In this document: in pieces, positions 4,951-20,169 of the stretch
How positions within the stretch are numbered: position 1 is the first letter of the stretch
How the letters are laid out: each line of letters starts with the position of its first letter
From: a virus
Taxonomy: Duplodnaviria; Heunggongvirae; Uroviricota; Caudoviricetes
DNA length: 20,169 nt
Virus record (IMG/VR): IMGVR_UViG_2879759574_000001
Strand: one strand, 5' to 3'
The notes under the pieces: generated by a model
Database searches by the model: none
Told to the model about the DNA's origin: nothing
The model's input: the letters and a program-made list of their open reading frames with translations, nothing else
Made by a program: the position numbers and the translations under genes

Positions 4951-5438
4951 TAAGCCCCCACGTAATTCCCTGACAGATACCACTCATCACCCGATACAGC
5001 GCGCTTGCTGCTTTTCCGTAAGCACCGCTCACGACGCGCCAGAAAATTGTTTCGTTCTGGCTGGGAGTGGCTTTCACGGAATGCCGCCATCCACACCGTT
5101 GCAGCACGACGGTATAAGCCCCTGGACTCCAGTTCTTCAGCCTGGCGGGTCAGGCACAAAATCACCCGGGGATCGTTAGTGCCGACATAGAAATTGCGCA
5201 CAGGTCTGGTTTCTCGAACTGATTGTGGTCCCGGTTCCTGCGCTCTCTCAGTCAGGCGCGGGAAATGTCTGCGTGTATCTCCTTCACAACGGTGAGCCAC
5301 ACGCCCACTCTGACGTAACTTGCTTGCAGACTGCAGAACGCGCTGCCGTGAGTAACCTGCAAAAGCATCCGCAATGTCTCCGGAAGTACACCCCGGATGG
5401 GCTTCAATGAATTTCTGAACGTCATTCAAAAGACTCAT
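4950..5438 (-). CDS. YfdN-like protein with C-terminal PerC-like motif (163 aa)
   Basis: Start set at ATG 5438 (MSLLNDVQKF...); the longer track ORF has a low-complexity N-extension overlapping the rep gene. C-terminal AEELESRGLYRRAATVWMAAF shares the PerC-type motif with the ORF at 9181-9462. Confidence 0.45.
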   Translation of the reverse strand: MSLLNDVQKFIEAHPGCTSGDIADAFAGYSRQRVLQSASKLRQSGRVAHRCEGDTRRHFPRLTERAQEPGPQSVRETRPVRNFYVGTNDPRVILCLTRQAEELESRGLYRRAATVWMAAFRESHSQPERNNFLARRERCLRKSSKRAVSGDEWYLSGNYVGA

Positions 5439-6006
5439 GCTCACCCCTGAATCCTGCCGGGATCTGGCTGTAGTCCACGTTGTCGTAACTGGCTTTGAAG
5501 TACGGGTCTTCACGTTTTTCTGTGTGCGTGCAGACGGACGGCGATAAGCGCAGGGAAAGCTCATCCCATTTTTCCCGCAACTTCGACGGGCTGAGCACGT
5601 TACGGCACCAGAACGGATCGCGGCTGACGCGGCTGTACATCTCGCAGATTTGTTTGTGAGTACGGCCATCCTGTACACACATCAGGCGAATTTCGTTTGC
5701 CCAGGCTGTCCAGTTCGGTTCTTTGGGACGAACCACCTCGCCGTCACATTCGGCAGCCTGCTCGTACAGGGCGATGATTTTTTTCCAGAGCCACTGTGCG
5801 CAGGTCAAATCATCCTGCGTCCCCCACTGGCGCTTTTTAGGGCTGAATACAACCGCATCAGGATGGCGAGTTAAAAAATCCTGTTCAGCCGTCTGCGTGT
5901 CCGGTTGCGAAGCGTCCGGACGAGAAGGTTTTTTATCTGACGGATCATGTTTTGATTTTACTGACGGATCCCCGCCAGATTCTGACGGGTGAAAACCCGC
6001 TTTTTT
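5422..6006 (-). pseudogene. 3' portion of phage replication-initiation gene, separated from its 5' portion (13478-13860) by IS66
   Basis: Frame continues in phase from 13860 across the 8-bp duplication: ...SKSGKKA | GFHPSESGGDPSVKSKHDPSDKK...; the track start at 6021 is a TTG inside the IS66 end. Confidence 0.65.
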
Positions 6007-6043
6007 GTAAGCGTGCAGCAAGAACCGTATTGACGGGGATGTG

Positions 6044-7580
6044 TTATTCAGTCGGCAGTGCTACGCGCCAGGGGAGCAGTTCGCCGACCCGGTTTATCGG
6101 CCAGTCGGCTATGACGTCAAGTACATAGCGGAGGTAGCTTTCTGGCTCCACTCCGTTCAGTTTGCACGTCCCGATCAGGCTGTACAGCAGCGCTCCCCGC
6201 TCTCCTCCATGATCCGAACCGAAGAACAGGTAGTTTTTGCGGCCCAGACTGACCATCCGCAACGCATTTTCAGCGATGTTATTGTCCGCCTCAGCCCAGC
6301 CATCATCTGCATAGTACGTCAGCGCCGGCCACTGGTTCAGGGCGTATGCGAACGCTTTCGCCAGTTCTGAGTGTCGCGACAGGGTTTTCATCTTTTCACG
6401 CAGCCAGCTTTCCAGGGATTTCAGCAGCGGTTTCGTTTTCAACTGACGTTCGGCAAGGCGCTGCTCCGCCGTCATTCCCCTTATCTCTGCCTCGATGGCG
6501 TACAGTTCGCCGATCCGTTTCAGCGCTTCCTCCGTCAGGGCTGACGGGGTGCGAACGTGCACATCGTGGATTTTACGGCGGGCGTGAGCCCAACAGGCGG
6601 CTTCCGTTATCCGGCCATCCCGGTACAGCTCGTTGAACCCGGCGTATGCATCCGCCTGCAGTACACCACTGAACCCCGCAAGATGGGTCTGCGGATGGAT
6701 GCCTTTTCTGTCCGGGCTGTAAGCGAACCACACCGCCGGCGCCAGCGTTGACCCGGCGTTACGGTCGTCACGAACGTAGGTCCATAACCGCCCGGTCTTC
6801 GTTTTCTTATTGCCTGGCAACAGCACCGGGACAGGCGTGTCATCAGCATGGAGCTTACCGTCAGTCAGCACATAGTCCTGAAGCGCTTCTTCCAGCGGTG
6901 ACAGTAGCCGGCAGCATGCATCCACCCAGCCCGACAGCAGTGAACGACTCAGCTCCACGCCCTGGCGGCCGTACATTTCAGACTGGCGGTACAGCGGGGT
7001 GTGCTCTGCATACTTTGAGATCAGCACGCGGGCCAGCAGCCCCGGTCCTGCGATACCCCGCTCGATGGGCCGTGAAGGCGCGGGGCCTGCACGATGGCAT
7101 CGCACTGAGTACAGGCATGCTTTTCACGTACAGTCCGGATAACCCGGAAGACGCTGCGCATCAACTCCAGCTGTTCGGCGGCATCCTCACCCGGATAGCT
7201 CAGTGAGCCTCCACATTCCGGGCAGCATGACGCTGCCGGCAGCAGCCGTTTTTCATCGCGGGGGAGTGATTCGGGAACGGTTTGCGGGTGCGGGTTTGAC
7301 GCAGCGGGCGCTGCACGGCCGGGTCGTCAACCCGACCGGTAAGGGTATCACTTTCTTTCTGAAGTGCCTTCAGGTCAGCTTCCATCTGTGCGATACGACG
7401 GGAGACTTTTTCGGAGCGGCTGCCGAAGTTCATCCGGCGCAGCTTATCCAGCTGTGCCTGCAGATGGTCTATTTCGCGTTCACGCTCGTTCAGCTTTTCC
7501 AGCAGGGCACGGTTCAGCGCCTCCTGTTCGGCAAGGAGACGTTTCAGTGCATTGATATCGTCAGGAAGTGAGCTGCTCAT
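6044..7580 (-). pseudogene. IS66 tnpC (transposase) disrupted by two 1-bp deletions
   Basis: Split into ORFs 7200-7580 and 6044-7105; compared with intact copy 2, one G/C is missing in the homopolymer run at 7273-7275 and one in the run at 7082-7085. Confidence 0.8.
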
Positions 7581-7628
7581 ACCGGGTATATTACCAGGCT
7601 CATTCAGCGTCGACCAGGATAAAGAGGC

Positions 7629-7976
7629 TTACAACATAGTCAGGGACGTAAGCAGTCTTTTAGGCTGCCGCCAGTCGATACCTTCAAGGAGCATCGCCAG
7701 CTGTGCCGGTGTGAGGAACACTTTGCCATCCCGGGCTGACGGCCAGGCGAAGCGGCCGCGCTCCAGCCGTTTGGTCAGCAGACACAGTCCATCGCCGGTA
7801 GACCAGAGGAGCTTTACCTGACTGCCATTACGCCCACGGAAGATAAAAACGTGACCTGACATCGGATCGTCTTTCAGCGTCGTCTGCACCTTTGCCGCCA
7901 GGCCGTTGAAGCCATTTCTCATATCGGTGATACCGGCAACCAGCCAAATTTTGGTCCCGGAAGGTAACGGGATCAT
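7629..7976 (-). CDS. IS66 TnpB (Orf2), 115 aa
   Basis: Identical protein to ORF 14329-14676; typical IS66 orf2 position with ATGA overlap to tnpA. Confidence 0.85.
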   Translation of the reverse strand: MIPLPSGTKIWLVAGITDMRNGFNGLAAKVQTTLKDDPMSGHVFIFRGRNGSQVKLLWSTGDGLCLLTKRLERGRFAWPSARDGKVFLTPAQLAMLLEGIDWRQPKRLLTSLTML

Positions 7977-8374
7977 CGCTTCAGTTCCTGTATCAGCAGA
8001 GTCAGGAGCTTTTCGCTGACATTGCCATTGAAGCGGAGCGTCCCGTGCCGGAACGTTACCTCACAGCTGATACTGAGGGTTTCCGGATCCTCTGCGAGCG
8101 ATTCTGGCTGTTCGGCAGCTGCATCGAGAGTCACAGGAAGTAGCTGGGGGCTCTCTGAAGAAGGTAATAGCAGCTTTCCCTCGCGCCATTGTTGTCGCCA
8201 TTTGAACAACAGATTGGCGTTAATGCCATTTTCAAGAGCAAGTTTTGAGATGGATATCCCGGGTTCACAGGAGGCAGCAACGAGCTGCTGTTTAAATTCG
8301 GGAGGATAATTAGGGCAGCCTTTTCGCCTGCCGGGATTCACATTTTTCTGCATATCTGACACTTTGGTTCCCAC
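7973..8374 (-). CDS. IS66 TnpA (Orf1), 133 aa, intact in this copy
   Basis: 133-aa ORF; the copy-2 counterpart is broken into 80-aa and 78-aa ORFs by a 1-bp deletion. Confidence 0.8.
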   Translation of the reverse strand: MGTKVSDMQKNVNPGRRKGCPNYPPEFKQQLVAASCEPGISISKLALENGINANLLFKWRQQWREGKLLLPSSESPQLLPVTLDAAAEQPESLAEDPETLSISCEVTFRHGTLRFNGNVSEKLLTLLIQELKR

Positions 8375-8465
8375 TACTTATTTGGTGGACACCACTTTGT
8401 CTAATTCGTCAGATTCTGACCAGACGGTTCAGGCTGTACGCTTACTTTCCAATGGGCACTCATGT

Positions 8466-8909
8466 TTATACGCTGACCTTACAATCAATCACCGCTTTTA
8501 AATTTTCAGCATTGCTTCCCTGACGCTTCCACGCGCTGTAAATATCTTTATCCCACGCTTTACCAGCTTTTGTTTGATAGCCTGCTTCATTGATCCGTTC
8601 AGCTATCACACGCCCATTATCAAATCCCTGTTGGATGGTATCGGCAATGATCTTTATAACTGCCGTTTCGTTATATGGCTTTGGTGGGATGTTCGGCTTT
8701 CCGGCAATAAGCGACGCAGCGGCTTTTTCCATGCGCTCCACCAGCCCAAGCATTCGTGAATCAATAGACTTTTCCGGCTGTCCCAGCTTCATGCGAATCG
8801 CATCAACAAGCCAGGAGGTTTTATCCCCTCCAGAAGCGAGAACAGACCGATTAAACTCATCCTGCAATTCAGATGGGATGCGGAACGCGATCAGATTAGA
8901 TTTGCTCAT
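8466..8909 (-). CDS. hypothetical DNA-binding protein, putative ribbon-helix-helix N-terminus
   Basis: MSKSNLIAFRIPSELQDEFNRSVLASGGDKTSWLVDAIRMKL has a strand-helix-helix pattern like Arc/CopG-type RHH; divergent from the iteron array and PerC-like gene; start ambiguous (ATG 8921 or 8909), weak RBS. Confidence 0.35.
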   Translation of the reverse strand: MSKSNLIAFRIPSELQDEFNRSVLASGGDKTSWLVDAIRMKLGQPEKSIDSRMLGLVERMEKAAASLIAGKPNIPPKPYNETAVIKIIADTIQQGFDNGRVIAERINEAGYQTKAGKAWDKDIYSAWKRQGSNAENLKAVIDCKVSV

Positions 8910-8940
8910 TGCAAAGACCATATCAGTGAGTAATATCCAT

Positions 8941-8970
8941 ACAGTATACCACTGTATAACACTGTTATAC
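8941..8970. repeat. three tandem ~10-bp repeats ACAGTATAC / CACTGTATAA / CACTGTTATAC in the promoter region of the RHH-like gene
   Basis: Direct reading of sequence; half-site-like CTGT/ACAG elements but not a canonical CTGT-N8-ACAG LexA box. Confidence 0.3.
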
Positions 8971-9022
8971 GCTCAAATATCAGCCAGAAAATAACGGACC
9001 AATCACAAAGCTATCGCTGTGT

Positions 9023-9145
9023 TGTTGGTTCAGAGCTGGGCTGTGTTGGTTCAAAATGAGTTGATGTTGGTTCAATATTTTAGAAAAAACATAATAAAAA
9101 CAACGATCTTTACAAATTGAACCAACTGAACCAACTGAACCAACA
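9023..9145. repeat. iteron array: 3 direct TGTTGGTTCA repeats at 21-bp spacing, AT-rich spacer, then 3 tandem inverted copies TGAACCAAC
   Basis: Direct copies at 9023-9032, 9044-9053, 9065-9074; inverted copies at 9118-9126, 9127-9135, 9136-9144; the inverted set overlaps the -35 region of a TATAAT (9162-9167) upstream of the PerC-like gene. Confidence 0.6.
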
Positions 9146-9180
9146 CCTTTTTGCTTATCTATATAATCTGAGAGGCAGAA

Positions 9181-9462
9181 ATGATAAGGGACAGGAAAGC
9201 TGAAGAGCTGGAGTCAAAAGGGCTATACCGGAGAGCTGCCGCACGATGGATGGAAGTCATGCTGTTATGCACCGAGGACGATGATCGGGAATGGATAAAG
9301 CGCCGCCGTGAAACGTGTCTGGAGAACGTGAAGCGCCCGCCCGTGAAGGTTGAGGAATTTGGCGACCTGCATAAAGCTGTTACCGAAACGCAACACCGCA
9401 TGGGGATAGCGCAACCGAACGGTAACGCCTTCCGGTTAAATGGCGGCAAGAGGCAAAGGTAG
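9181..9462 (+). CDS. PerC-family transcriptional activator-like protein (93 aa)
   Basis: MIRDRKAEELESKGLYRRAAARWMEVML...RRRETCLENV matches the PerC/Pch signature as I recall it; good RBS (GAGAGG) before ATG. Confidence 0.5.
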   Translation: MIRDRKAEELESKGLYRRAAARWMEVMLLCTEDDDREWIKRRRETCLENVKRPPVKVEEFGDLHKAVTETQHRMGIAQPNGNAFRLNGGKRQR

Positions 9463-9758
9463 ACCACCAGAGGGAAATCATCCTCTGGCTGGCGGTTTCT
9501 GGTATTTCGGGACAAGTACGCGCGCGCGTAGCACCCAATCGGTGAGGAAATAGCGGCGACCTGAATGGTCAAAATCACAACGCAGCTATCCCCGTAAGCA
9601 GCGCTTAACGGAATAGCAGTAACCTGAATCCAGTGGGGAGGGGGTAGTCAAATCTCTACAGCCCTGACTATCCGGGACTGCCCGCCCATCGTTTTTTTAT
9701 ACCCGCGAAAAATGAAATTTAATCCGGGCGTGTTTCATCCTTCCAGAGGGTATGACGT

Positions 9759-9944
9759 ATGACACCACGCGAAATAGCCTTATTGACCATCGCCAAACTT
9801 GAGCACGGAGGCCACCAGCTTACACAGGCAGATCAACGGGAGATAGAACGATCAGTTAATGCCGATATAGCCCGGCGCGACAGGTTCCGCGAAATGATGC
9901 GAGCACCTGCCTACCAGTGGAAGAAGCCAGCGCCGCGCAGGTAG
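9759..9944 (+). CDS. hypothetical 61-aa basic protein
   Basis: ORF with possible RBS AGAGGG upstream; no recognisable motif. Confidence 0.25.
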   Translation: MTPREIALLTIAKLEHGGHQLTQADQREIERSVNADIARRDRFREMMRAPAYQWKKPAPRR

Positions 9945-10064
9945 ATATGGGATTATTCCACATGTACCTTATGCGTATTAAGCAAATTTCCTTTATTCAC
10001 CTTTACAGAATTGTGAGTACGTCAGTATCGTTATCCTTCCGATTCGCATTTATTCAGGATTTGC

Positions 10065-10607
10065 ATGTACCAGCTAAAGATAACCATCCGAGACAGCAAA
10101 CCACCTATATGGCGGCGTGTGCTGGTTCCAGAGCAAATCCCCTTTAGTAAACTTCATGCCGTGATCCAGTTAGCTTTTGGCTGGAATGACGAACACCTGT
10201 ATATGTTCGAGAAAGGGCGTAAAGGTGATCCAGGTAGCGAGTATCGCGTATGGGGTGAGGATGAAAGCATGGGTAACGCGGCAATCACGCCACTATGGGC
10301 GGCGCTCCAGAATGAGGGTGACAAGCTGGTTTACACGTATGACTTTGGCGACTGGTGGGATTGCGTCATTGTGCTGGAGAAGCAAACACACGATACGAGT
10401 AATCAGCCCATTAGCTGCCTGCGTGGGAAAGGCACCACCCCGGCGGAAAACTCAGGCGGCTTGCATGGTTACAATGAATTGCTATTACAGGCCAGAGAGT
10501 CTGATAATCCTGAGCAGGCCGAGATCCACAATTTCCTGATGCTGGATATTGAACGCCGGGTTTACGACCTGAGCCGCATCAACGACAGATTGCAGGCTAT
10601 TAACTGA
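10065..10607 (+). CDS. pRiA4b ORF-3-like family protein (180 aa)
   Basis: N-terminus MYQLKITIRDSKPPIWRRVLVPEQIPFSKLHAVIQLAFGWNDEHLYMF matches the characteristic start of the pRiA4b ORF-3-like family (YxLKxTL...PPIWRR..VP...F.DLH..IQ...GW...HL.F); RBS AGGA present. Confidence 0.6.
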   Translation: MYQLKITIRDSKPPIWRRVLVPEQIPFSKLHAVIQLAFGWNDEHLYMFEKGRKGDPGSEYRVWGEDESMGNAAITPLWAALQNEGDKLVYTYDFGDWWDCVIVLEKQTHDTSNQPISCLRGKGTTPAENSGGLHGYNELLLQARESDNPEQAEIHNFLMLDIERRVYDLSRINDRLQAIN

Positions 10608-10959
10608 CCCGCATGTATTCACCTGATATTGCGTTGTCAGCGCCGCCAGTATCGCGCATAACAGCGCACTGACCGGGTAAACCGTAGCGCACGACCGTTG
10701 CGTTAGTATCACCGCCGCGCCGTATCTGGCGCGATTCATACACTGTCACCCGCTCAAGCAGTCCACCAGCAACCATGCTTTCCAGTGTGCGCCGGGTTGA
10801 TTCGAGCTGGTGACGCTTATCGAACGACACCATGCCATGAAGCAGGTAGGCCACACCCGACACATCGAACGGCGGCGCACCAATCTCACCAGTCACCCAT
10901 TCGAGGTTATCCGGTTCAAAGTAGCTAAGTATCTCTTTTTTGCGACTGGTCATTCTCAT
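10600..10959 (-). CDS. hypothetical 119-aa protein, convergent with and overlapping the pRiA4b-like gene by 8 nt
   Basis: ORF with RBS AAGGA; segment RTLESMVAGGLLERV could be a winged-helix recognition element, but that is unverified. Confidence 0.3.
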   Translation of the reverse strand: MRMTSRKKEILSYFEPDNLEWVTGEIGAPPFDVSGVAYLLHGMVSFDKRHQLESTRRTLESMVAGGLLERVTVYESRQIRRGGDTNATVVRYGLPGQCAVMRDTGGADNAISGEYMRVS

Positions 10960-11187
10960 GGCTGGCTGATTCCTTATTGTGGGATAGCACTATCATACAA
11001 TAAGTGGGTTAAAGGGAGAGCGTTACCGCCTGATATGCTGTATGAATAACAACCAAATTTCAGGGGCGGAAAAAGATATGGGGGTACTTTTGGGGGTATC
11101 TATAAAAAATGAACAATAAAAAAGGCAACAAAAACAAAGCTTATCGCCTATGTGTATTGTTCCCATTATCCCATTTAAATCAATAAG

Positions 11188-11691
11188 TTACACATCATTA
11201 GTACGTTCCTTATTTCTTGACTGGGACAAATTTGGGACCGATGGGTTCAGAATCGAGTCTATTTGCCGTGCGTGTTCGGTAAGGTGATTAGGTGCGAGGT
11301 GAGCATATCGACGAACCATTTCGATAGACTCCCAGCCTCCCATTTCCTGTAACACTGATAACGGGACTCCGGCTTGAACCAGCCAACTTGCCCAGGTGTG
11401 TCTCAAGTCGTGAAATCTGAAATCATCAATACCTGCTCGTCTCAGCGCCGCTTTCCAGGCTGTGTTTGCGTCATACCGCATCTTCCTGACTGTTGGCGCT
11501 TTCGTTCCGTCTGGTTTGGTACAGCTTTCCTTATACACAAATACCCAACGGTGATGATTCCCGATTTGTTTTTTCAATACGCGACATGCAGTATCATTCA
11601 GCGCAACGCCAATTGCGCGGTTTGATTTACTCTCTTCCGGGTTTATCCATGCCACCCGGTGAGGTGTACTGGCAATAGCGGACACTACCAT
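11188..11691 (-). pseudogene. tyrosine recombinase (phage integrase), C-terminal catalytic half only
   Basis: Contains HDLRHTWAS (His-x-x-Arg box) and VRRYAHL (catalytic Tyr); the N-terminal roughly 200 aa expected for an integrase are absent and the ORF abuts an IS3-family fragment. Confidence 0.75.
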
Positions 11692-11699
11692 TTGTTCTT

Positions 11700-12221
11700 T
11701 TTTTAAGCAGCCATCTGATGATATTTTTCCCTGAAGGCTGCCGGGGAGATATTCCCCAGACGAGAGTGACGACGCTGACGATTGTAGAAAATCTCAATGT
11801 ATTCCCGTATTACTGAGATGGCTTCATCCCGGTTATTAAAACGATAGTGGCTCAGGCTCTCATTTTTCAGCGTCCCCAGAAGCTTTCCATCGGAGCGTTG
11901 TCGTAACAGTTACCTTTACGCGACATTGATGTTTTCAGACCAGACTGCTCCTGTATGACCCGGTAATCGTATGCGCAGTACTGTGAACCTCGATCAGAGT
12001 GGTGGATTAGCCCGGCAGGTGGGCGCTGGCTCCTGAGCGCCATAAACAGGGCTTTACCTGTCAGCTCTTTTGTCATGCGCTCTCCCATGGCGTAGCCGAC
12101 AATTTCGCACGTATAAACATCTTTGATGCCAGCGAGGTACAACCATCCCTCCTGTGTGGCAACATACGTCAGGTCCGCCACCCAGACCTGATTTGGTGCT
12201 GTAGGAGCGAACGTCTGGTTC
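11700..12221 (-). pseudogene. IS3-family (IS407-group-like) transposase OrfB, 3' fragment with internal frameshift, truncated by IS911
   Basis: ...HHSDRGSQYCAYDY...MSRKGNCYDNAPMESFW then, in another frame, [56 protein letters not shown]; the 5' side ends exactly at the IS911 left end (12222). Confidence 0.6.
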
Positions 12222-12293
12222 TGAAGTGGCACACTGAATTTGGCCACCTGAACAGAGGTGATATGCTCACCTCAGAACAACACAGGTGCTCCA

Positions 12294-13861
<1,568 letters not shown>

Positions 13862-13931
13862 TAAGCGTACAGCCTGAACCGTCTGGTCAGAATCTGACGA
13901 ATTAGACAAAGTGGTGTCCACCAAATAAGTA

Positions 13932-14332
13932 GTGGGAACCAAAGTGTCAGATATGCAGAAAAATGTGAATCCCGGCAGGCGAAAAGGCTGCCCTAATTAT
14001 CCTCCCGAATTTAAACAGCAGCTCGTTGCTGCCTCCTGTGAACCCGGGATATCCATCTCAAAACTTGCTCTGAAAATGGCATTAACGCCAATCTGTTGTT
14101 CAAATGGCGACAACAATGGCGCGAGGGAAAGCTGCTATTACCTTCTTCAGAGAGCCCCCAGCTACTTCCTGTGACTCTCGATGCAGCTGCCGAACAGCCA
14201 GAATCGCTCGCAGAGGATCCGGAAACCCTCAGTATCAGCTGTGAGGTAACGTTCCGGCACGGGACGCTCCGCTTCAATGGCAATGTCAGCGAAAAGCTCC
14301 TGACTCTGCTGATACAGGAACTGAAGCGATGA
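13932..14332 (+). pseudogene. IS66 tnpA with 1-bp deletion
   Basis: CTTGCTCTGAAAATGG here versus CTTGCTCTTGAAAATGG in copy 1; ORF split into 13932-14174 and 14096-14332. Confidence 0.75.
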
Positions 14333-14676
14333 TCCCGTTACCTTCCGGGACCAAAATTTGGCTGGTTGCCGGTATCACCGATATGAGAAATGGCTTCAAC
14401 GGCCTGGCGGCAAAGGTGCAGACGACGCTGAAAGACGATCCGATGTCAGGTCACGTTTTTATCTTCCGTGGGCGTAATGGCAGTCAGGTAAAGCTCCTCT
14501 GGTCTACCGGCGATGGACTGTGTCTGCTGACCAAACGGCTGGAGCGCGGCCGCTTCGCCTGGCCGTCAGCCCGGGATGGCAAAGTGTTCCTCACACCGGC
14601 ACAGCTGGCGATGCTCCTTGAAGGTATCGACTGGCGGCAGCCTAAAAGACTGCTTACGTCCCTGACTATGTTGTAA
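14329..14676 (+). CDS. IS66 TnpB (Orf2), 115 aa
   Basis: Identical to 7629-7976. Confidence 0.85.
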   Translation: MIPLPSGTKIWLVAGITDMRNGFNGLAAKVQTTLKDDPMSGHVFIFRGRNGSQVKLLWSTGDGLCLLTKRLERGRFAWPSARDGKVFLTPAQLAMLLEGIDWRQPKRLLTSLTML

Positions 14677-14724
14677 GCCTCTTTATCCTGGTCGACGCTG
14701 AATGAGCCTGGTAATATACCCGGT

Positions 14725-16263
14725 ATGAGCAGCTCACTTCCTGACGATATCAATGCACTGAAACGTCTCCTTGCCGAACAGGAGGCGCTGAACCGTGCCC
14801 TGCTGGAAAAGCTGAACGAGCGTGAACGCGAAATAGACCATCTGCAGGCACAGCTGGATAAGCTGCGCCGGATGAACTTCGGCAGCCGCTCCGAAAAAGT
14901 CTCCCGTCGTATCGCACAGATGGAAGCTGACCTGAAGGCACTTCAGAAAGAAAGTGATACCCTTACCGGTCGGGTTGACGACCCGGCCGTGCAGCGCCCG
15001 CTGCGTCAAACCCGCACCCGCAAACCGTTCCCCGAATCACTCCCCCGCGATGAAAAACGGCTGCTGCCGGCAGCGTCATGCTGCCCGGAATGTGGAGGCT
15101 CACTGAGCTATCCGGGTGAGGATGCCGCCGAACAGCTGGAGTTGATGCGCAGCGTCTTCCGGGTTATCCGGACTGTACGTGAAAAGCATGCCTGTACTCA
15201 GTGCGATGCCATCGTGCAGGCCCCCGCGCCTTCACGGCCCATCGAGCGGGGTATCGCAGGACCGGGGCTGCTGGCCCGCGTGCTGATCTCAAAGTATGCA
15301 GAGCACACCCCGCTGTACCGCCAGTCTGAAATGTACGGCCGCCAGGGCGTGGAGCTGAGTCGTTCACTGCTGTCGGGCTGGGTGGATGCATGCTGCCGGC
15401 TACTGTCACCGCTGGAAGAAGCGCTTCAGGACTATGTGCTGACTGACGGTAAGCTCCATGCTGATGACACGCCTGTCCCGGTGCTGTTGCCAGGCAATAA
15501 GAAAACGAAGACCGGGCGGTTATGGACCTACGTTCGTGACGACCGTAACGCCGGGTCAACGCTGGCGCCGGCGGTGTGGTTCGCTTACAGCCCGGACAGA
15601 AAAGGCATCCATCCGCAGACCCATCTTGCGGGGTTCAGTGGTGTACTGCAGGCGGATGCATACGCCGGGTTCAACGAGCTGTACCGGGATGGCCGGATAA
15701 CGGAAGCCGCCTGTTGGGCTCACGCCCGCCGTAAAATCCACGATGTGCACGTTCGCACCCCGTCAGCCCTGACGGAGGAAGCGCTGAAACGGATCGGCGA
15801 ACTGTACGCCATCGAGGCAGAGATAAGGGGAATGACGGCGGAGCAGCGCCTTGCCGAACGTCAGTTGAAAACGAAACCGCTGCTGAAATCCCTGGAAAGC
15901 TGGCTGCGTGAAAAGATGAAAACCCTGTCGCGACACTCAGAACTGGCGAAAGCGTTCGCATACGCCCTGAACCAGTGGCCGGCGCTGACGTACTATGCAG
16001 ATGATGGCTGGGCTGAGGCGGACAATAACATCGCTGAAAATGCGTTGCGGATGGTCAGTCTGGGCCGCAAAAACTACCTGTTCTTCGGTTCGGATCATGG
16101 AGGAGAGCGGGGAGCGCTGCTGTACAGCCTGATCGGGACGTGCAAACTGAACGGAGTGGAGCCAGAAAGCTACCTCCGCTATGTACTTGACGTCATAGCC
16201 GACTGGCCGATAAACCGGGTCGGCGAACTGCTCCCCTGGCGCGTAGCACTGCCGACTGAATAA
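14725..16263 (+). CDS. IS66 TnpC transposase, intact (512 aa)
   Basis: Uninterrupted 512-aa ORF with N-terminal coiled-coil/leucine-zipper region and CxxC...CxxC zinc motif (CCPECGG...CTQCDA). Confidence 0.85.
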
Positions 16264-16300
16264 CACATCCCCGTCAATACGGTTCTTGCTGCACGCTTAC

Positions 16301-16382
16301 CGATATCCTCGATATAAATATCGTCAATGGTGGAGTTGATATAATTGAACTTCTTACCGGTAAGAGTCTGGATAAAACTCAT
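16301..16382 (-). pseudogene. 5' stub (first 27-28 codons, MSFIQTLTGKKFNYINSTIDDIYIEDI) of an unknown gene truncated by the IS66 right end
   Basis: Strong RBS AAGGAGA 7 nt before ATG at 16382; frame runs directly into the IS66 inverted repeat. Confidence 0.35.
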
Positions 16383-16539
16383 CGTTAGTTCTCCTTAATT
16401 GGTGCGCTGCACCGCACGATTTTTGGTTGCACGAATCCCTCGCCATAAGGCGATTAAAAGTTTTGGTTTCGTTTCAGTAAATGCCCCATCCAGAGGCACT
16501 TAGTGCAACGGGCGGCTGCCATCGCCAGTTATTTTCCCC

Positions 16540-16624
16540 ACTCAATTGAAAGCGCGTTCCGGAGGTTTTGGACTTAACGAACTGGCACTTAATGACAAGG
16601 GACAGAACGCGCTTTCAGTTGAGT
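16540..16624. repeat. 20-bp inverted repeat (19/20 match) separated by a 45-nt spacer
   Basis: Left arm ACTCAATTGAAAGCGCGTTC (16540-16559), right arm GAACGCGCTTTCAGTTGAGT (16605-16624); not followed by a T-tract on either strand. Confidence 0.5.
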
Positions 16625-16775
16625 AAAAAGGTGGCTATTCATCAGAACATTGTCGCCTTCATTAGGTTTATCTGTTGAAGATCTGTAAGCCGCTTATAAA
16701 TAAGTAGATATAAGATATTAGGAAAAGAAGAAGGACGTTATAGTTTTATTTGTGATGTGCAAAGTATATTTGAAT

Positions 16776-16796
16776 AGAACCCGCCCAGCGGGTTCT
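16776..16796 (-). terminator. 9-bp GC-rich stem-loop overlapping the stop codon of the 201-aa gene (weak terminator candidate)
   Basis: AGAACCCGC-CCA-GCGGGTTCT; no clear U-tract afterwards. Confidence 0.3.
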
Positions 16797-17400
16797 AAAG
16801 TGTTTTAATGATTGTCGTGATAATTAATTGGCTCATCATTTTTTGGTCTGGTATAGTTATGGACCACTTTATATTCTTTAGGCTGTTATGTTTTTTATTG
16901 ACCTTAAGCTCTCTCTTTGCTTCAGAGATAATATCGTCTAGTAATACTTTTAATTTATCAAGTCTTGACTTGTGGGCATCTATCAACTCTATACTATCAA
17001 ACTCCCATTGTATAAATAGATTTTCTTCATTTTCAATGAATGAACGGATTTTATCCCCACACTCTTCTGTTAAGAATAATGAAGATAGCTCACCTATTCT
17101 ACTGAGTTTTTCAAGCTCATTAGAGAAAGATTTGCTAAGGATTTCATTTTCTTCTTTTGATTTGTAACTAAAGTAGGTTGGGAATTGTGAAGCGTGATGT
17201 AACTCATGTTTATACCAATAGTCAGCTGTGTTTTTTAGAAGATAAACACAGTCAACTAATTGCGTATACAAATCTATTCTTTTGTCCCACCATTTTTCTT
17301 TATAATAACGGCCGAGTGCATATCGCGCAGTTAAGTAAGCTGCGATTGAGCCTGTAACAAGTCCGATAATTACCTTTGATATAAGGTCATGCCAATCCAT
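16795..17400 (-). CDS. hypothetical membrane-anchored protein (201 aa, one N-terminal TM helix, AT-rich)
   Basis: ORF MDWHDLISKVIIGLVTGSIAAYLTARYAL... has a single hydrophobic helix followed by a charged, Lys/Glu-rich soluble region; codon usage and base composition are clearly more AT-rich than neighbours; RBS AGGA. Confidence 0.5.
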   Translation of the reverse strand: MDWHDLISKVIIGLVTGSIAAYLTARYALGRYYKEKWWDKRIDLYTQLVDCVYLLKNTADYWYKHELHHASQFPTYFSYKSKEENEILSKSFSNELEKLSRIGELSSLFLTEECGDKIRSFIENEENLFIQWEFDSIELIDAHKSRLDKLKVLLDDIISEAKRELKVNKKHNSLKNIKWSITIPDQKMMSQLIITTIIKTL

Positions 17401-17852
17401 TTTTATTTTTCCTACATTATGTTATATAATTGTTCATATCATACAATTGTTGAGTATAGATGTCTCGTTATTCATCAACATTTACTCCTGTTAAATTAGG
17501 GGGAGTATGTATTAAAAATATTCATCTGGGTCGTCTAAATATTTTTGATAAACTAATAGCAATAACACTATCAGTATTGCCTGCCCTCACGTCGTTCTTG
17601 CTCTCGCGCGATTTTTAACTAAACACTAGCAGGATTTATCATGGTGCTACGCTACATTTACTTGTAGGGAGCTAAACAGATCATTGACGCTGAAAATATT
17701 CAAATTGTTAAAGAGCGAAGCGTCCTATGGGCGTTTTGTTGCTAACGAATCATCTTGGACTTCATATGCTCCAGGCGGCTACTTCGTGGGCATCCTGCCT
17801 GTTTGTTGTTTCGTTTTGGTACATTGTGTGTCCATGGGTACATTGTCAAGTA

Positions 17853-17876
17853 TAAAAAAACCTGCCGAAGCAGGTT
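17853..17876 (-). terminator. rho-independent terminator downstream of the cI-like gene
   Basis: Minus strand AACCTGC-TTCG-GCAGGTT followed by TTTTTTTA. Confidence 0.6.
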
Positions 17877-17888
17877 CATAAATATTGA

Positions 17889-18563
17889 TTAGGCCTTTAT
17901 TTTGTATCTTCTTGGTTTTCCCGAGAAAATCACAGTGCCAATTATAGAGCAATTACCGTTAATCTTAATGTAGGGCTCAGGCCAGTTTGGGTGTAATGCT
18001 TTGAGATAACGCTGTGTTCCATCTTCTATCAATCGCTTGAAGGTGATTTCGCCTGTATCGTGCATCAACGCAATAACGTCGTCACCGTGGCAAGCAGGGA
18101 CTTCAGGATCAACAAAAATCATGTCTCCCGGACGGTACTCATCAATCATTGAATCACCAATCACCCGCAAGATATAAGTCATTTCGCCACAGGGTACAGG
18201 GCAGGGATAAGTTTCTGCTGTGCTCAAATCAACCTCAGAATAGCCAACTTCTTTCCATGCTCCGGCCTGTACCCATGATATGACAGGGACTAACGTTATT
18301 TGTTTGTTAGTGATTGAAACATCAGGTTTTTTTGTGATGTTCGTTGTCTGGTGTTCTTGATCGAGCCATCCGATAGGCAAGTCGAAACATTTTTCAATGT
18401 GTCGTGCCATGCTGTCACCGATATTTTTAGTAGCACCATCTCCCATAAACCTGCTGGTCTGGGTTGGCTCGCGATCAATCATAGTGGCAAAGGAAGAATT
18501 CCCGCCAACACCATCTCTCAGTTTTCTGGCGTTAGACCGCCGGATGTCATGGATTGTTTTCAT
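17889..18563 (-). CDS. CI-like phage repressor with C-terminal S24 (LexA-type) peptidase domain
   Basis: C-terminal half has VIGDSM (catalytic Ser) and FKRL (Lys) with ...GDMIFVDPE...; N-terminus resembles phage CI HTH domains; divergent from a Cro-like gene. Confidence 0.8.
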   Translation of the reverse strand: MKTIHDIRRSNARKLRDGVGGNSSFATMIDREPTQTSRFMGDGATKNIGDSMARHIEKCFDLPIGWLDQEHQTTNITKKPDVSITNKQITLVPVISWVQAGAWKEVGYSEVDLSTAETYPCPVPCGEMTYILRVIGDSMIDEYRPGDMIFVDPEVPACHGDDVIALMHDTGEITFKRLIEDGTQRYLKALHPNWPEPYIKINGNCSIIGTVIFSGKPRRYKIKA

Positions 18564-18580
18564 AACGAAATTAAAACCCT

Positions 18581-18647
18581 TGTACCGCTAAGGTACAAGT
18601 ATCTTGAAGGTTCATTTCAATCATGTAACATGTACACTTGAGGTACA
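18581..18647. promoter_or_regulatory. divergent cI/cro control region with two TGTAC-N7-GTACA palindromic operator candidates
   Basis: TGTACCGCTAAGGTACA (18581-18597) and TGTACACTTGAGGTACA (18631-18647) lie between the cI start (18563) and cro start (18654). Confidence 0.45.
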
Positions 18648-18653
18648 TATTGT

Positions 18654-18854
18654 ATGAAAGCGTATTGGGACTCTTTAACCAAAGAACAGCAGGGTGAGTT
18701 GGCCGGAAAAGTTGGCTCAACACAAGGCTACTTACGGCTGGTTTTCAATGGCTATAAAAAAGCCAGTTTTGTGCTGGCTAAAAAACTTGAGCAATGCACG
18801 TCAGGTGCAATTACGAAATCTGACTTAAGACCGGATATCTATCCGAAAGATTAG
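18654..18854 (+). CDS. Cro-like small HTH regulator (66 aa)
   Basis: Position divergent from cI; STQGYLRLVFNGYKKASFVLAKKLEQCTSGAITKSDLRPDIY resembles Cro/YdaS-type proteins. Confidence 0.55.
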   Translation: MKAYWDSLTKEQQGELAGKVGSTQGYLRLVFNGYKKASFVLAKKLEQCTSGAITKSDLRPDIYPKD

Positions 18855-18885
18855 CAGAACACTTTCAATTTTTAACCACAGAACG

Positions 18886-19455
18886 ATGAGGCTAATCGTG
18901 GGTAAGCATCACTGGAAAATAGAAAAACAGCCTGAGTGGTACGTGAAAGCTGTCAGAAAAACTATCGCAAAGTTGCCGGGTGGTTACGCTGAAGCGGCTG
19001 ACTGGCTCGATGTAACAGAAAACGCTTTATTCAACCGCCTTCGTGCAGATGGCGATCAGATTTTCCCGCTGGGATGGGCAATGGTTTTACAGCGTGCTGG
19101 TGGCACTCACTTCATTGCTGATGCTGTGGCGCAGTCTGCAAATGGCGTCTTTGTGTCTCTTCCTGACATCGAGGATGTGGACAACGCCGATATTAACCAG
19201 CGTCTGCTGGAAGTCATTGAACAGATCGGCAGTTATTCAAAACAGATTCGTTCAGCAATCGAAGACGGTGTAGTGGAACCGCATGAGAAGACAGCAATTA
19301 ACGACGAGCTGTATCTCTCAATTTCGAAGCTGCAGGAGCATGCAGCACTTGTCTACAAAATTTTTTGCATTTCAGAAAGTAATGACGCCCGCGAGTGTGC
19401 AGCTCCGGGCGTCGTGGCGTCGATTGCTTCTGGTTGTGGAGAAACTAACGCATGA
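18886..19455 (+). CDS. CII-like/early regulatory protein (tentative)
   Basis: Position right after cro; 189-aa ORF; start uncertain (ATG 18886 has a poor RBS, GTG 18898 has GAGG upstream); family assignment is from weak recollection only. Confidence 0.3.
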
Positions 19456-19790
19456 ACAGTTTAACAACACACTACCGTCGCTCGCAACTGATTGCGCTTT
19501 CTGTACCGGGTGGAAAAGCGAAGGTGGAATATTGCTATGCAGTGAATGTACCAGGTGACAGGGAAATTGTAACCCACAGCTTTGCAGAGTGGGCTGTGGG
19601 TGATTTCAACCGGCAGAAGGAGACAGTCCTTTGCGACAAGTTAACCGCTGGTTCAAAGATCACTACGGAGTGCCCGTCAGAGTCATTCGTTGGGAGCCGG
19701 AAACACAACGGGTTATCTACCTCCGCGGAGGTTATGAGCATGAATGCTTCAGTCCGCTCGAACAGTTTCGTCGTAAATTCAGGGAAATAG
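19452..19790 (+). CDS. hypothetical protein; likely frameshifted, with an alternative frame open to the IS911 junction
   Basis: Annotated frame ends [32 protein letters not shown]; the -1 frame reads [53 protein letters not shown] and looks more protein-like. Confidence 0.3.
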
Positions 19791-19794
19791 AGGT

Positions 19795-20169
<375 letters not shown>

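Follow-up and report, generated by a model that had tools for sequence, protein, structure and literature searches.

A cryptic gene segment in a lambdoid viral record as the probable junction of an EcCIMP1-type satellite and a prophage at thrW

Layout of the segment

We consider here the segment 8446-11700 of the window, by which we mean the whole 20,169-nucleotide stretch of the virus record IMGVR_UViG_2879759574_000001 (Caudoviricetes). In an earlier note, this segment was regarded as a cryptic cargo of six open reading frames (ORFs), including a truncated integrase, left by a small integrative element or satellite that had been captured by insertion sequence (IS) activity. All coordinates are whole-window positions, and the PADLOC-DB v2 scan covered the proteins of all six ORFs. 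NCBIfam and PHROGs contributed generic labels only. The six ORFs are all present where they had been reported. From left to right, they are the gene of a 147-amino-acid (147-aa) protein (8466..8909, minus strand; 151 aa from an upstream ATG at 8921), recognised from its ORF and its homologues; the PerC/ANR-like regulator gene, which is EcCIMP1_025 (9181..9462, plus strand; PF06069, E=3.7e-30); the gene of a 61-aa basic protein (9759..9944, plus strand), an ORF conserved in Enterobacterales; the pRiA4b ORF-3/MM3350-like gene (10065..10607, plus strand; PF07929, E=1.1e-42); the gene of a 119-aa protein (10600..10959, minus strand), an ORF convergent with the pRiA4b gene, with the 3' ends overlapping by 8 nt; and the C-terminal 156 codons of an integrase (11188..11659, minus strand; PF00589, E=5.6e-32), where the ORF extends to 11691. 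Between the last two genes lies a degenerate thrW attachment (att) core, TCCCATTATC + CCA (11161..11173), the putative junction of a satellite attR and a prophage attL.

The left border is copy 1 of an IS66-family element (6007..8445, minus strand) with TnpA, TnpB and TnpC ORFs, which is an inverted repeat of 13861-16300 with 99-100% identity. Its end lies exactly at 8445 and is the left truncation point of the satellite remnant. On the right, the element that truncates the integrase had been called IS407-like; it is rather a fragment annotated as an IS600-family transposase (IS3 family; 11660..12221, minus strand).

The satellite end

EcCIMP1 is a phage-inducible chromosomal island (PICI) residing in tRNA-Thr (thrW), which was characterised in Escherichia coli MP1 (Pick, Stadel & Raivio 2025, ISME J, PMC11773190; GenBank OR778291). 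It was shown by experiment that the island excises, circularises and is transduced only with the helper phage Kapi1; the island ends were sequenced and the att core is TCCTATTATC (PMC11773190). The window positions 11173-9023 match the right, attR end of the island in the MP1 locus (L040 8706-10857) with 98.6% identity over 2,153 bp, and the match stops no more than 3 nt from the island boundary that was sequenced experimentally, with the published end at MP1 3,565,708 (L040 8709) corresponding to window position ~11170. The PerC-like, 61-aa and pRiA4b-ORF3 proteins are 100% identical to those of MP1 (WP_000617443.1 in 93/93 residues, WP_000188903.1 and WP_000284450.1, respectively), while the 119-aa protein agrees in 118/119 residues. 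The block is contiguous at at least 99% identity in 84 complete E. coli genomes, and its genes are a linked set as had been claimed. It was also claimed that these genes do not belong to the lambdoid backbone and that a small element or satellite left them, and for the five non-integrase genes both claims are borne out: they match the attR-proximal end of an EcCIMP1-type PICI.

In the annotated records, the five-gene block is always the last part of a ~12-20-kb island that lies downstream of proA in tRNA-Thr (thrW), and the island sits between proA and yagU at thrW (MP1, P15-25, EC17GD31 and CP131_Sichuan). The gene order of the island is a P4-type integrase, an AlpA-type helix-turn-helix (HTH) protein, an AntA antirepressor, DUF4222, Ash/Icd, a P4-family or TOPRIM-DUF927 primase and then the five-gene module, with P22-like ejection proteins additionally present in some variants. 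The satellite's own P4-type integrase adjoins thrW at the island's other end and is not in the window. None of the core PICI genes (integrase, alpA, antirepressor, primase and ejection proteins) is in the window, where IS66 replaces everything left of 8446. What is seen here is the remnant of a PICI member and not a functional member, and as such it cannot excise, replicate or be packaged. Intact relatives with a full integrase and att sites do exist, namely the EcCIMP1-type islands at thrW. With them the satellite part of the earlier proposal stands, while the integrase part does not, as the integrase of these islands is a different one, of P4 type and at the opposite end.

As a separate observation on this site, in E. 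coli P15-25 (L001 15907-23861) an integrase remnant comes after the thrW satellite, together with a type I restriction-modification system and an AbiEi/AbiEii pair. As seen from this locus, thrW is a stacking site for defence and mobile elements.

The junction and the truncated integrase

The homology to EcCIMP1 stops at 11173, inside the core (TCCCATTATC, 11161-11170, followed by CCA), and the homology to thrW prophages begins at 11161. The core has 1 mismatch to TCCTATTATC, the 3' end of tRNA-Thr. As a 10-mer it is not significant by chance, with at least 2 hits found in 20/100 shuffles, and its weight rests on its position. The Rfam and tRNA scans of the window gave no hits.

On the other side of the core, E7476 carries an intact lambdoid prophage directly at thrW, where the 3' end of thrW is followed by int reading towards thrW. 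The window positions 11161-11659 show 98.8% nucleotide identity to the left end of this prophage, with 99.4% amino-acid identity in the integrase fragment, and the intact thrW prophages in E7476, CX21 and ECONIH4 all carry the window's int at ~99% identity. The fragment covers residues 217-372 of the 372-aa protein; beyond 11659 there is no integrase homology, and in the 167-aa ORF (11188-11691) the first 11 codons are derived from the IS. The fragment retains HxxR (HDLRH) and the catalytic Tyr (RRYAH), lacks the TGLRR box with the first catalytic Arg (before residue 217) and all N-terminal DNA-binding domains, and is non-functional. Judged by these identities, and because the same E7476 prophage also matches other pieces of the window, the fragment is the lambdoid prophage's own integrase and not that of the satellite, so that its earlier inclusion in the cargo set has to be given up.

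In CP131_Sichuan, an intact satellite and an intact prophage are present side by side and are colinear with window 9636-11659 (98.6%). Satellite and prophage are natural tandem neighbours which were truncated in place by IS insertion and rearrangement, rather than a cargo captured by IS activity as had been supposed. The segment is not one element; what had been taken for a "cryptic cargo" is where two known mobile elements meet. The satellite is already published and the neighbouring prophage is common, and the segment is mostly explained as a known kind of element.

Based on this evidence, it is very probable that the segment is a natural junction of two mobile elements that integrated in tandem at thrW, both of them later truncated by ISs. 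In the model, the satellite (an EcCIMP1-type PICI) and the lambdoid prophage would have integrated in tandem by using the same thrW att core. The left part, from 8446 to ~11170, would be the attR end of the PICI, with its regulatory and accessory tail consisting of the putative DNA-binding 147-aa protein, EcCIMP1_025, the 61-aa protein, the pRiA4b cargo and the 119-aa edge gene. The right part (11161-11659) would be the attL side of the prophage, containing the last 156 integrase codons cut by IS600. The rest of the window would be made up of more of this prophage, in pieces that were scrambled by IS66 and IS911 with at least one inversion between the IS66 copies.

Several points weigh against this model. 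Compared with thrW, the att core shows one mismatch and a deletion of 4 nt. In 5,426 complete E. coli genomes there is no match at 80% or more to the whole window, and the window's position at thrW is deduced from the relatives. A single inversion fails to explain the order of the prophage pieces, and the flanks of the second IS66 show no target duplication. The 119-aa and 147-aa proteins are putative DNA binders, with AlphaFold 2 (AF2) models of low confidence (predicted local distance difference test, pLDDT, of 57) and with all Foldseek, Pfam and PDB matches non-significant.

The pRiA4b ORF-3 gene and its slot

The pRiA4b protein matches PF07929 with 146.2 bits (gathering cut-off 26.6) and the sequence of PDB entry 2I1S with E=3.2e-21 over residues 1-167. 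The literature on pRiA4b, PF07929 and MM3350 consists of plasmid-vector and annotation mentions, with no functional study. Homologues are very rare among phages, with only 4 in 50,697 records. The gene is not an ordinary prophage early gene, a possibility that the earlier note had allowed for.

The gene is convergent with the 119-aa gene, with the 8-nt overlap, and in E. coli the close alleles of the two are nearly always found together (371 genomes with pRiA4b and 379 with a near-full 119-aa gene), from which it could be supposed that the two proteins form a dedicated system of the toxin-antitoxin-like or effector-regulator type. However, the co-occurrence in E. coli is explained by the inheritance of one block. 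In the cross-species scan, which took one genome per species and gave 34 loci in Enterobacterales and one in Pseudomonas, pRiA4b is present in only 8 of the ~28 species loci having a full-length 119-aa gene; in ~20 of these 28 loci the 119-aa gene does without it, being either directly convergent with the 61-aa gene or separated from it by other cargo. A further 112 E. coli genomes, O157:H7 included, lack pRiA4b and have a diverged 119-aa allele (60-80% identity). Moreover, PF07929 reaches far outside Enterobacterales, as with the archaeal 2I1S protein, whereas the 119-aa family is confined to that order. A dedicated pair is thus quite unlikely, and the linkage of these two genes is not conserved outside the closest relatives.

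In four loci, 26-30 bp separate the 61-aa gene from the 119-aa gene, its neighbour in ~21 of the 28 species loci, and in a fifth the distance is 6 bp. In other loci, this gap is taken up by the 147-aa gene, by Panacea-domain antitoxin pairs, by a peptidase of M78/CapP-like type together with a small membrane protein, by a DUF2280 protein, by an IS256-like transposase or by proteins without a match. We infer that the 119-aa gene is the anchor and that pRiA4b is one of several exchangeable cargoes in this hotspot and no partner of the 119-aa gene.

In slots of other species (L009:8939-10068, L022:1363-2399 and L014:5835-6727) there are cassettes of two genes that include a SocA/Panacea antitoxin domain, and there is a peptidase of the M78 family (PADLOC CapP model, E=6e-26) beside a small membrane protein. 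It is also noted that in L024, a contig labelled Pseudomonas lundensis I31, the 119-aa/61-aa module is found outside Enterobacterales at 62% protein identity, which could be due to transfer or to contamination.

As regards a function for the cargo, Kapi1 lysogens gain superinfection immunity from EcCIMP1, and both PADLOC and DefenseFinder were negative for the island (PMC11773190). The latter is in agreement with our scan, in which PADLOC-DB v2 gave 0 families at E<=0.1 for all six proteins. The 3' ends of PICIs are known sites of immune systems (PMC11364771). Because the island confers immunity with no recognised defence system, because the cargo slot is variable and because PICI ends host immune systems, one may suggest that pRiA4b, possibly under the control of the adjacent 119-aa regulator, is an anti-phage or superinfection-immunity determinant of EcCIMP1-type satellites. 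This suggestion is speculative and, on balance, unlikely; if it is true, it would provide the first function for the widespread PF07929 family.

The 119-aa protein and its palindrome

The 119-aa family comprises 542 clusters at 90% identity, all from Enterobacterales, and has only 90 representatives among 1.84 billion proteins. In O157:H7 the gene is found amid PerC genes, on the opposite strand and towards the end of a different PICI-like island, which is located at yicC-dinD. An imperfect palindrome of 15+15 nt, CTTATTGTGGGATAG-CA-CTATCATACAATAAG (10973-11004; inverted repeat I2), is located 13 nt upstream of the start codon, and it is found at the same position in 27/27 other-species loci examined as well as in the O157:H7 island. 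The palindrome has 78-92% identity to that of the window, compared with 65-94% for the coding sequence and ~50% for the sequence immediately upstream; in the divergent loci the corresponding values are 78-86% for the palindrome and 65-72% for the coding sequence. Immediately upstream of the palindrome, the homology between different islands drops to background (loci L005-L032 and L041), and in five loci the thrW core lies ~200 nt beyond it.

The protein has no match in Pfam, NCBIfam or PADLOC, and a profile search of the PDB sequences was empty. The Pfam scans of 62 family members and 10 distant representatives gave sub-threshold matches only, except for one T5orf172/MUG113 fusion. The AF2 models, built with 18 and then with 62 homologues, are of low confidence (pLDDT of 57 both times), with helices followed by a long beta-hairpin. 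With Foldseek against the PDB the best E-value was 0.05, which is not significant, although several of the top hits are winged-helix proteins (RTP, DnaD-N, PadR and TFIIE). The protein is probably a small DNA-binding autoregulator, perhaps winged-helix-like, that would act on the palindrome in its own promoter region, and the palindrome at 10973-11004 is a candidate operator. In the excised circular island, the 119-aa gene would face the island integrase across attP.

The fusion mentioned above is P0381 (200 aa), in which a distant relative of the 119-aa protein (residues 1-114) is joined to a T5orf172/MUG113 domain (residues 116-191). As a separate matter, all E. coli PICIs analysed are said to encode the small regulator RgdR (PMC6092414, PMC3378721), which was considered as a candidate for the 61-aa or the 119-aa protein and was set aside. 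In a comparison by description only, RgdR differs from both (99 aa, pI 10, with RGD at residues 20-22), and no homologue of either protein is named RgdR in the database sources.

The 147-aa, PerC-like and 61-aa genes

The 147-aa gene probably starts at the ATG at 8909, giving 147 aa, because the homologues, and RefSeq, all begin with MSKS. The protein is 98-99% identical to WP_001344215.1 and WP_001409589.1 of EcCIMP1-like islands, and full-length homologues with 61-72% identity are present in 9 other-species loci, with two further partial or weaker ones, most of them near the 119-aa gene. Searches of Pfam, NCBIfam and the PDB gave no match, even with a 9-sequence profile, nor was there any PADLOC match; there is a weak match over residues 5-49 to phrog_30270, a PHROG without an assigned function (E=4e-4). 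A ribbon-helix-helix (RHH)-like N-terminus, i.e. strand-helix-helix, which the earlier note had put forward for this protein, is plausible by eye only.

Between the divergent 147-aa and PerC-like genes lie three direct copies of TGTTGGTTCA, ~21 bp apart, at 9020-9078 (repeat families D4 and D6), which from their placement are a candidate operator. The promoter and terminator scans gave hits no more numerous than in shuffled sequence.

The PerC-like protein matches PF06069 with 104.5 bits (gathering cut-off 22.6) over residues 1-85 of 93, and the NCBIfam model of the ANR subfamily below threshold (31.1 vs a cut-off of 32). When expressed in Citrobacter rodentium, EcCIMP1_025 silenced LEE1-lux, a reporter for LEE, the locus of enterocyte effacement, and it was proposed to be ANR-like (PMC11773190). 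The 61-aa protein has no Pfam, NCBIfam or PADLOC match, and its family consists of 115 protein clusters from Enterobacterales, nearly all of them 61 aa long.

Could the segment be one element?

It might be argued that a single small integrative element or satellite left all six genes, the integrase being its own and interrupted by an IS. The genes are indeed contiguous, with the integrase only ~230 bp from the 119-aa gene, and in Symbiopectobacterium (L015 and L032) a related integrase (~62%) is present between the 119-aa and the 147-aa genes. However, the homology to the experimentally delimited EcCIMP1 ends at the att core, before the integrase. The satellite has an integrase of its own, of P4 type and unlike this one, at the other end by thrW, and the fragment in the window is ~99% identical to the int of intact thrW prophages that occur without any satellite. 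In most genomes, the module ceases to match at window position 11191 and is followed by a different integrase remnant or by yagU. A single element is therefore very improbable.

As to the Symbiopectobacterium loci themselves, the integrase (L015 8417-8818; L032 8420-9552) is ~62% identical to the lambdoid thrW int, lies inside the module and is convergent with the 119-aa gene. In L032 it is a full 378-aa ORF with an AlpA/Xis-like gene nearby, while in L015 the match is to the C-terminal part only. This arrangement of the integrase differs from that in E. coli.

The prophage backbone and its rearrangements

We now return to the model of tandem integration and consider the pieces of the prophage in the rest of the window. 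To the right of the IS600 fragment, the window contains an element annotated as IS911 family (12222..13468, plus strand), with a second copy starting at 19795; the 5' part of an O-like replication gene with the HTH domain (13469..13860, plus strand), of which the 3' part is inverted at ~5422-6006; copy 2 of the IS66-family element (13861..16300, plus strand), inverted relative to copy 1; and the immunity region with cI-like ymfK, cro-like ymfT, ymfL and DUF4222 (16301..19794, plus strand). The immunity region has 98.1% identity to the thrW lambdoid prophages of E7476, CX21 and ECONIH4. The 5' part of the O-like gene (13469-13861) corresponds to L003 15013-15405 with 99.2% identity to the E7476 prophage, and the inverted stretch 6007-2916 corresponds to L003 15396-18489 with 97.4% identity, containing the rest of the O-like gene and nin-type genes. 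CX21 and ECONIH4 hold both int and the cI/cro/replication backbone at ~97-99% identity.

The 8-bp sequence GCTTTTTT is present at 5999-6006, to the left of IS66 copy 1, and in reverse complement at 13853-13860, to the left of copy 2. The two left flanks are adjacent in the intact O-like gene, as in a split target duplication at one insertion site. Because the left flanks of both copies are the halves of one site in the O-like gene, the event is one IS66 insertion followed by recombination with another, inverted copy, i.e. an inversion. No duplication is common to the other two IS66 flanks (8446... and 16301...). As the immunity region is situated beyond IS66 copy 2, more than one rearrangement event took place. 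The history is partly reconstructed: one IS66 inversion accounts for the split O-like gene and not for the position of the immunity region.

The IS911-like copies are in direct orientation, with a 300-nt direct repeat (12222-12521 / 19795-20094), and the second copy spans 19795-20169. The same 4 bp of the E7476 prophage (L003 15013-15016) flank the left end of the second copy (19791-19794) and the right end of the first (13469-13472). In the intact prophages, the order of the immunity region (here 16301-19794) and the O-like gene's 5' part (here 13469-13860) is the opposite of that in the window, which requires a duplication or several rearrangements. A 413-aa ORF (12623-13864) runs stop-free from orfB of IS911 into the 5' part of the O-like HTH gene and is a chimeric frame made by the insertion. 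Neither the IS66/147-aa junction (8445/8446) nor the int/IS600 junction is present in the 5,426 complete E. coli genomes.

That the segment was instead moved as the passenger of an IS66 composite transposon, for which it can be said that two 2.44-kb copies with 99-100% identity flank 8446-13860 in inverted orientation, is scarcely credible, since the outer flanks (GCTTTTTT vs CGATATCC) form no 8-bp target duplication, the left flanks of the copies bear the signature of inter-copy recombination at one site of the O-like gene, the intervening DNA is itself colinear with the native junction of satellite and prophage, and the IS66-bounded 7.9-kb unit is not found at other sites, with its junction absent from the 5,426 genomes.

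Significance and comparison with known systems

With the model of two elements in tandem at thrW, some consequences are to be noted. In annotation, the truncated integrase should be assigned to the prophage and not to the cargo. The 119-aa gene with its upstream palindrome marks the conserved right edge in an entire family of enterobacterial PICIs, and the gap between the 61-aa and 119-aa genes is a hotspot of accessory genes. Because the PerC-like gene is identical to one that represses the LEE virulence island, even a dead satellite remnant may still affect the gene expression of the host. The superinfection immunity given by EcCIMP1 provides a concrete phenotypic context for the function of pRiA4b-ORF3.

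Compared with EcCIMP1, the window has the same type of att core and the same terminal order of the PerC-like, 61-aa, pRiA4b-ORF3 and 119-aa genes. It differs in that, of an island of 12-20 kb, it holds the final ~2.7 kb only, in that the 147-aa gene takes the position of alpA_1 of MP1, as in the P15-25 and EC17GD31 variants, and in that its att core is degenerate. With the Gram-negative PICIs EcCICFT073 and EcCIEDL933 and the O157:H7 yicC-dinD island, the family to which the remnant belongs shares int, the alpA-type HTH gene, the antirepressor, the primase and the PerC-like genes (PMC6092414), and also the opposite-strand gene of the 119-aa family near the island end, whereas the integration sites and the packaging modules are different. 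The O157:H7 island differs further in having no pRiA4b and a 119-aa homologue that is only ~64% identical.

PF07929 is represented structurally by MM3350 from Methanosarcina mazei (PDB 2I1S). The pRiA4b protein shows a full-length sequence match to it and belongs to the same Pfam family, but in E. coli the pRiA4b protein is a single-domain version that is carried as satellite cargo. Finally, with the thrW lambdoid prophages of E7476, CX21 and ECONIH4, which have the ymfK/ymfT/ymfL type of immunity, the window shares the C-terminus of the integrase, the immunity region, the O-like gene and the nin region at 97-99% identity. By contrast with the intact prophages, it lacks the N-terminal 216 codons of int and the region from xis to the HD-hydrolase, its O-like gene is split by IS66 into halves that are mutually inverted, the order of its pieces is scrambled, and IS911 is present between the DUF4222 and O-like genes.

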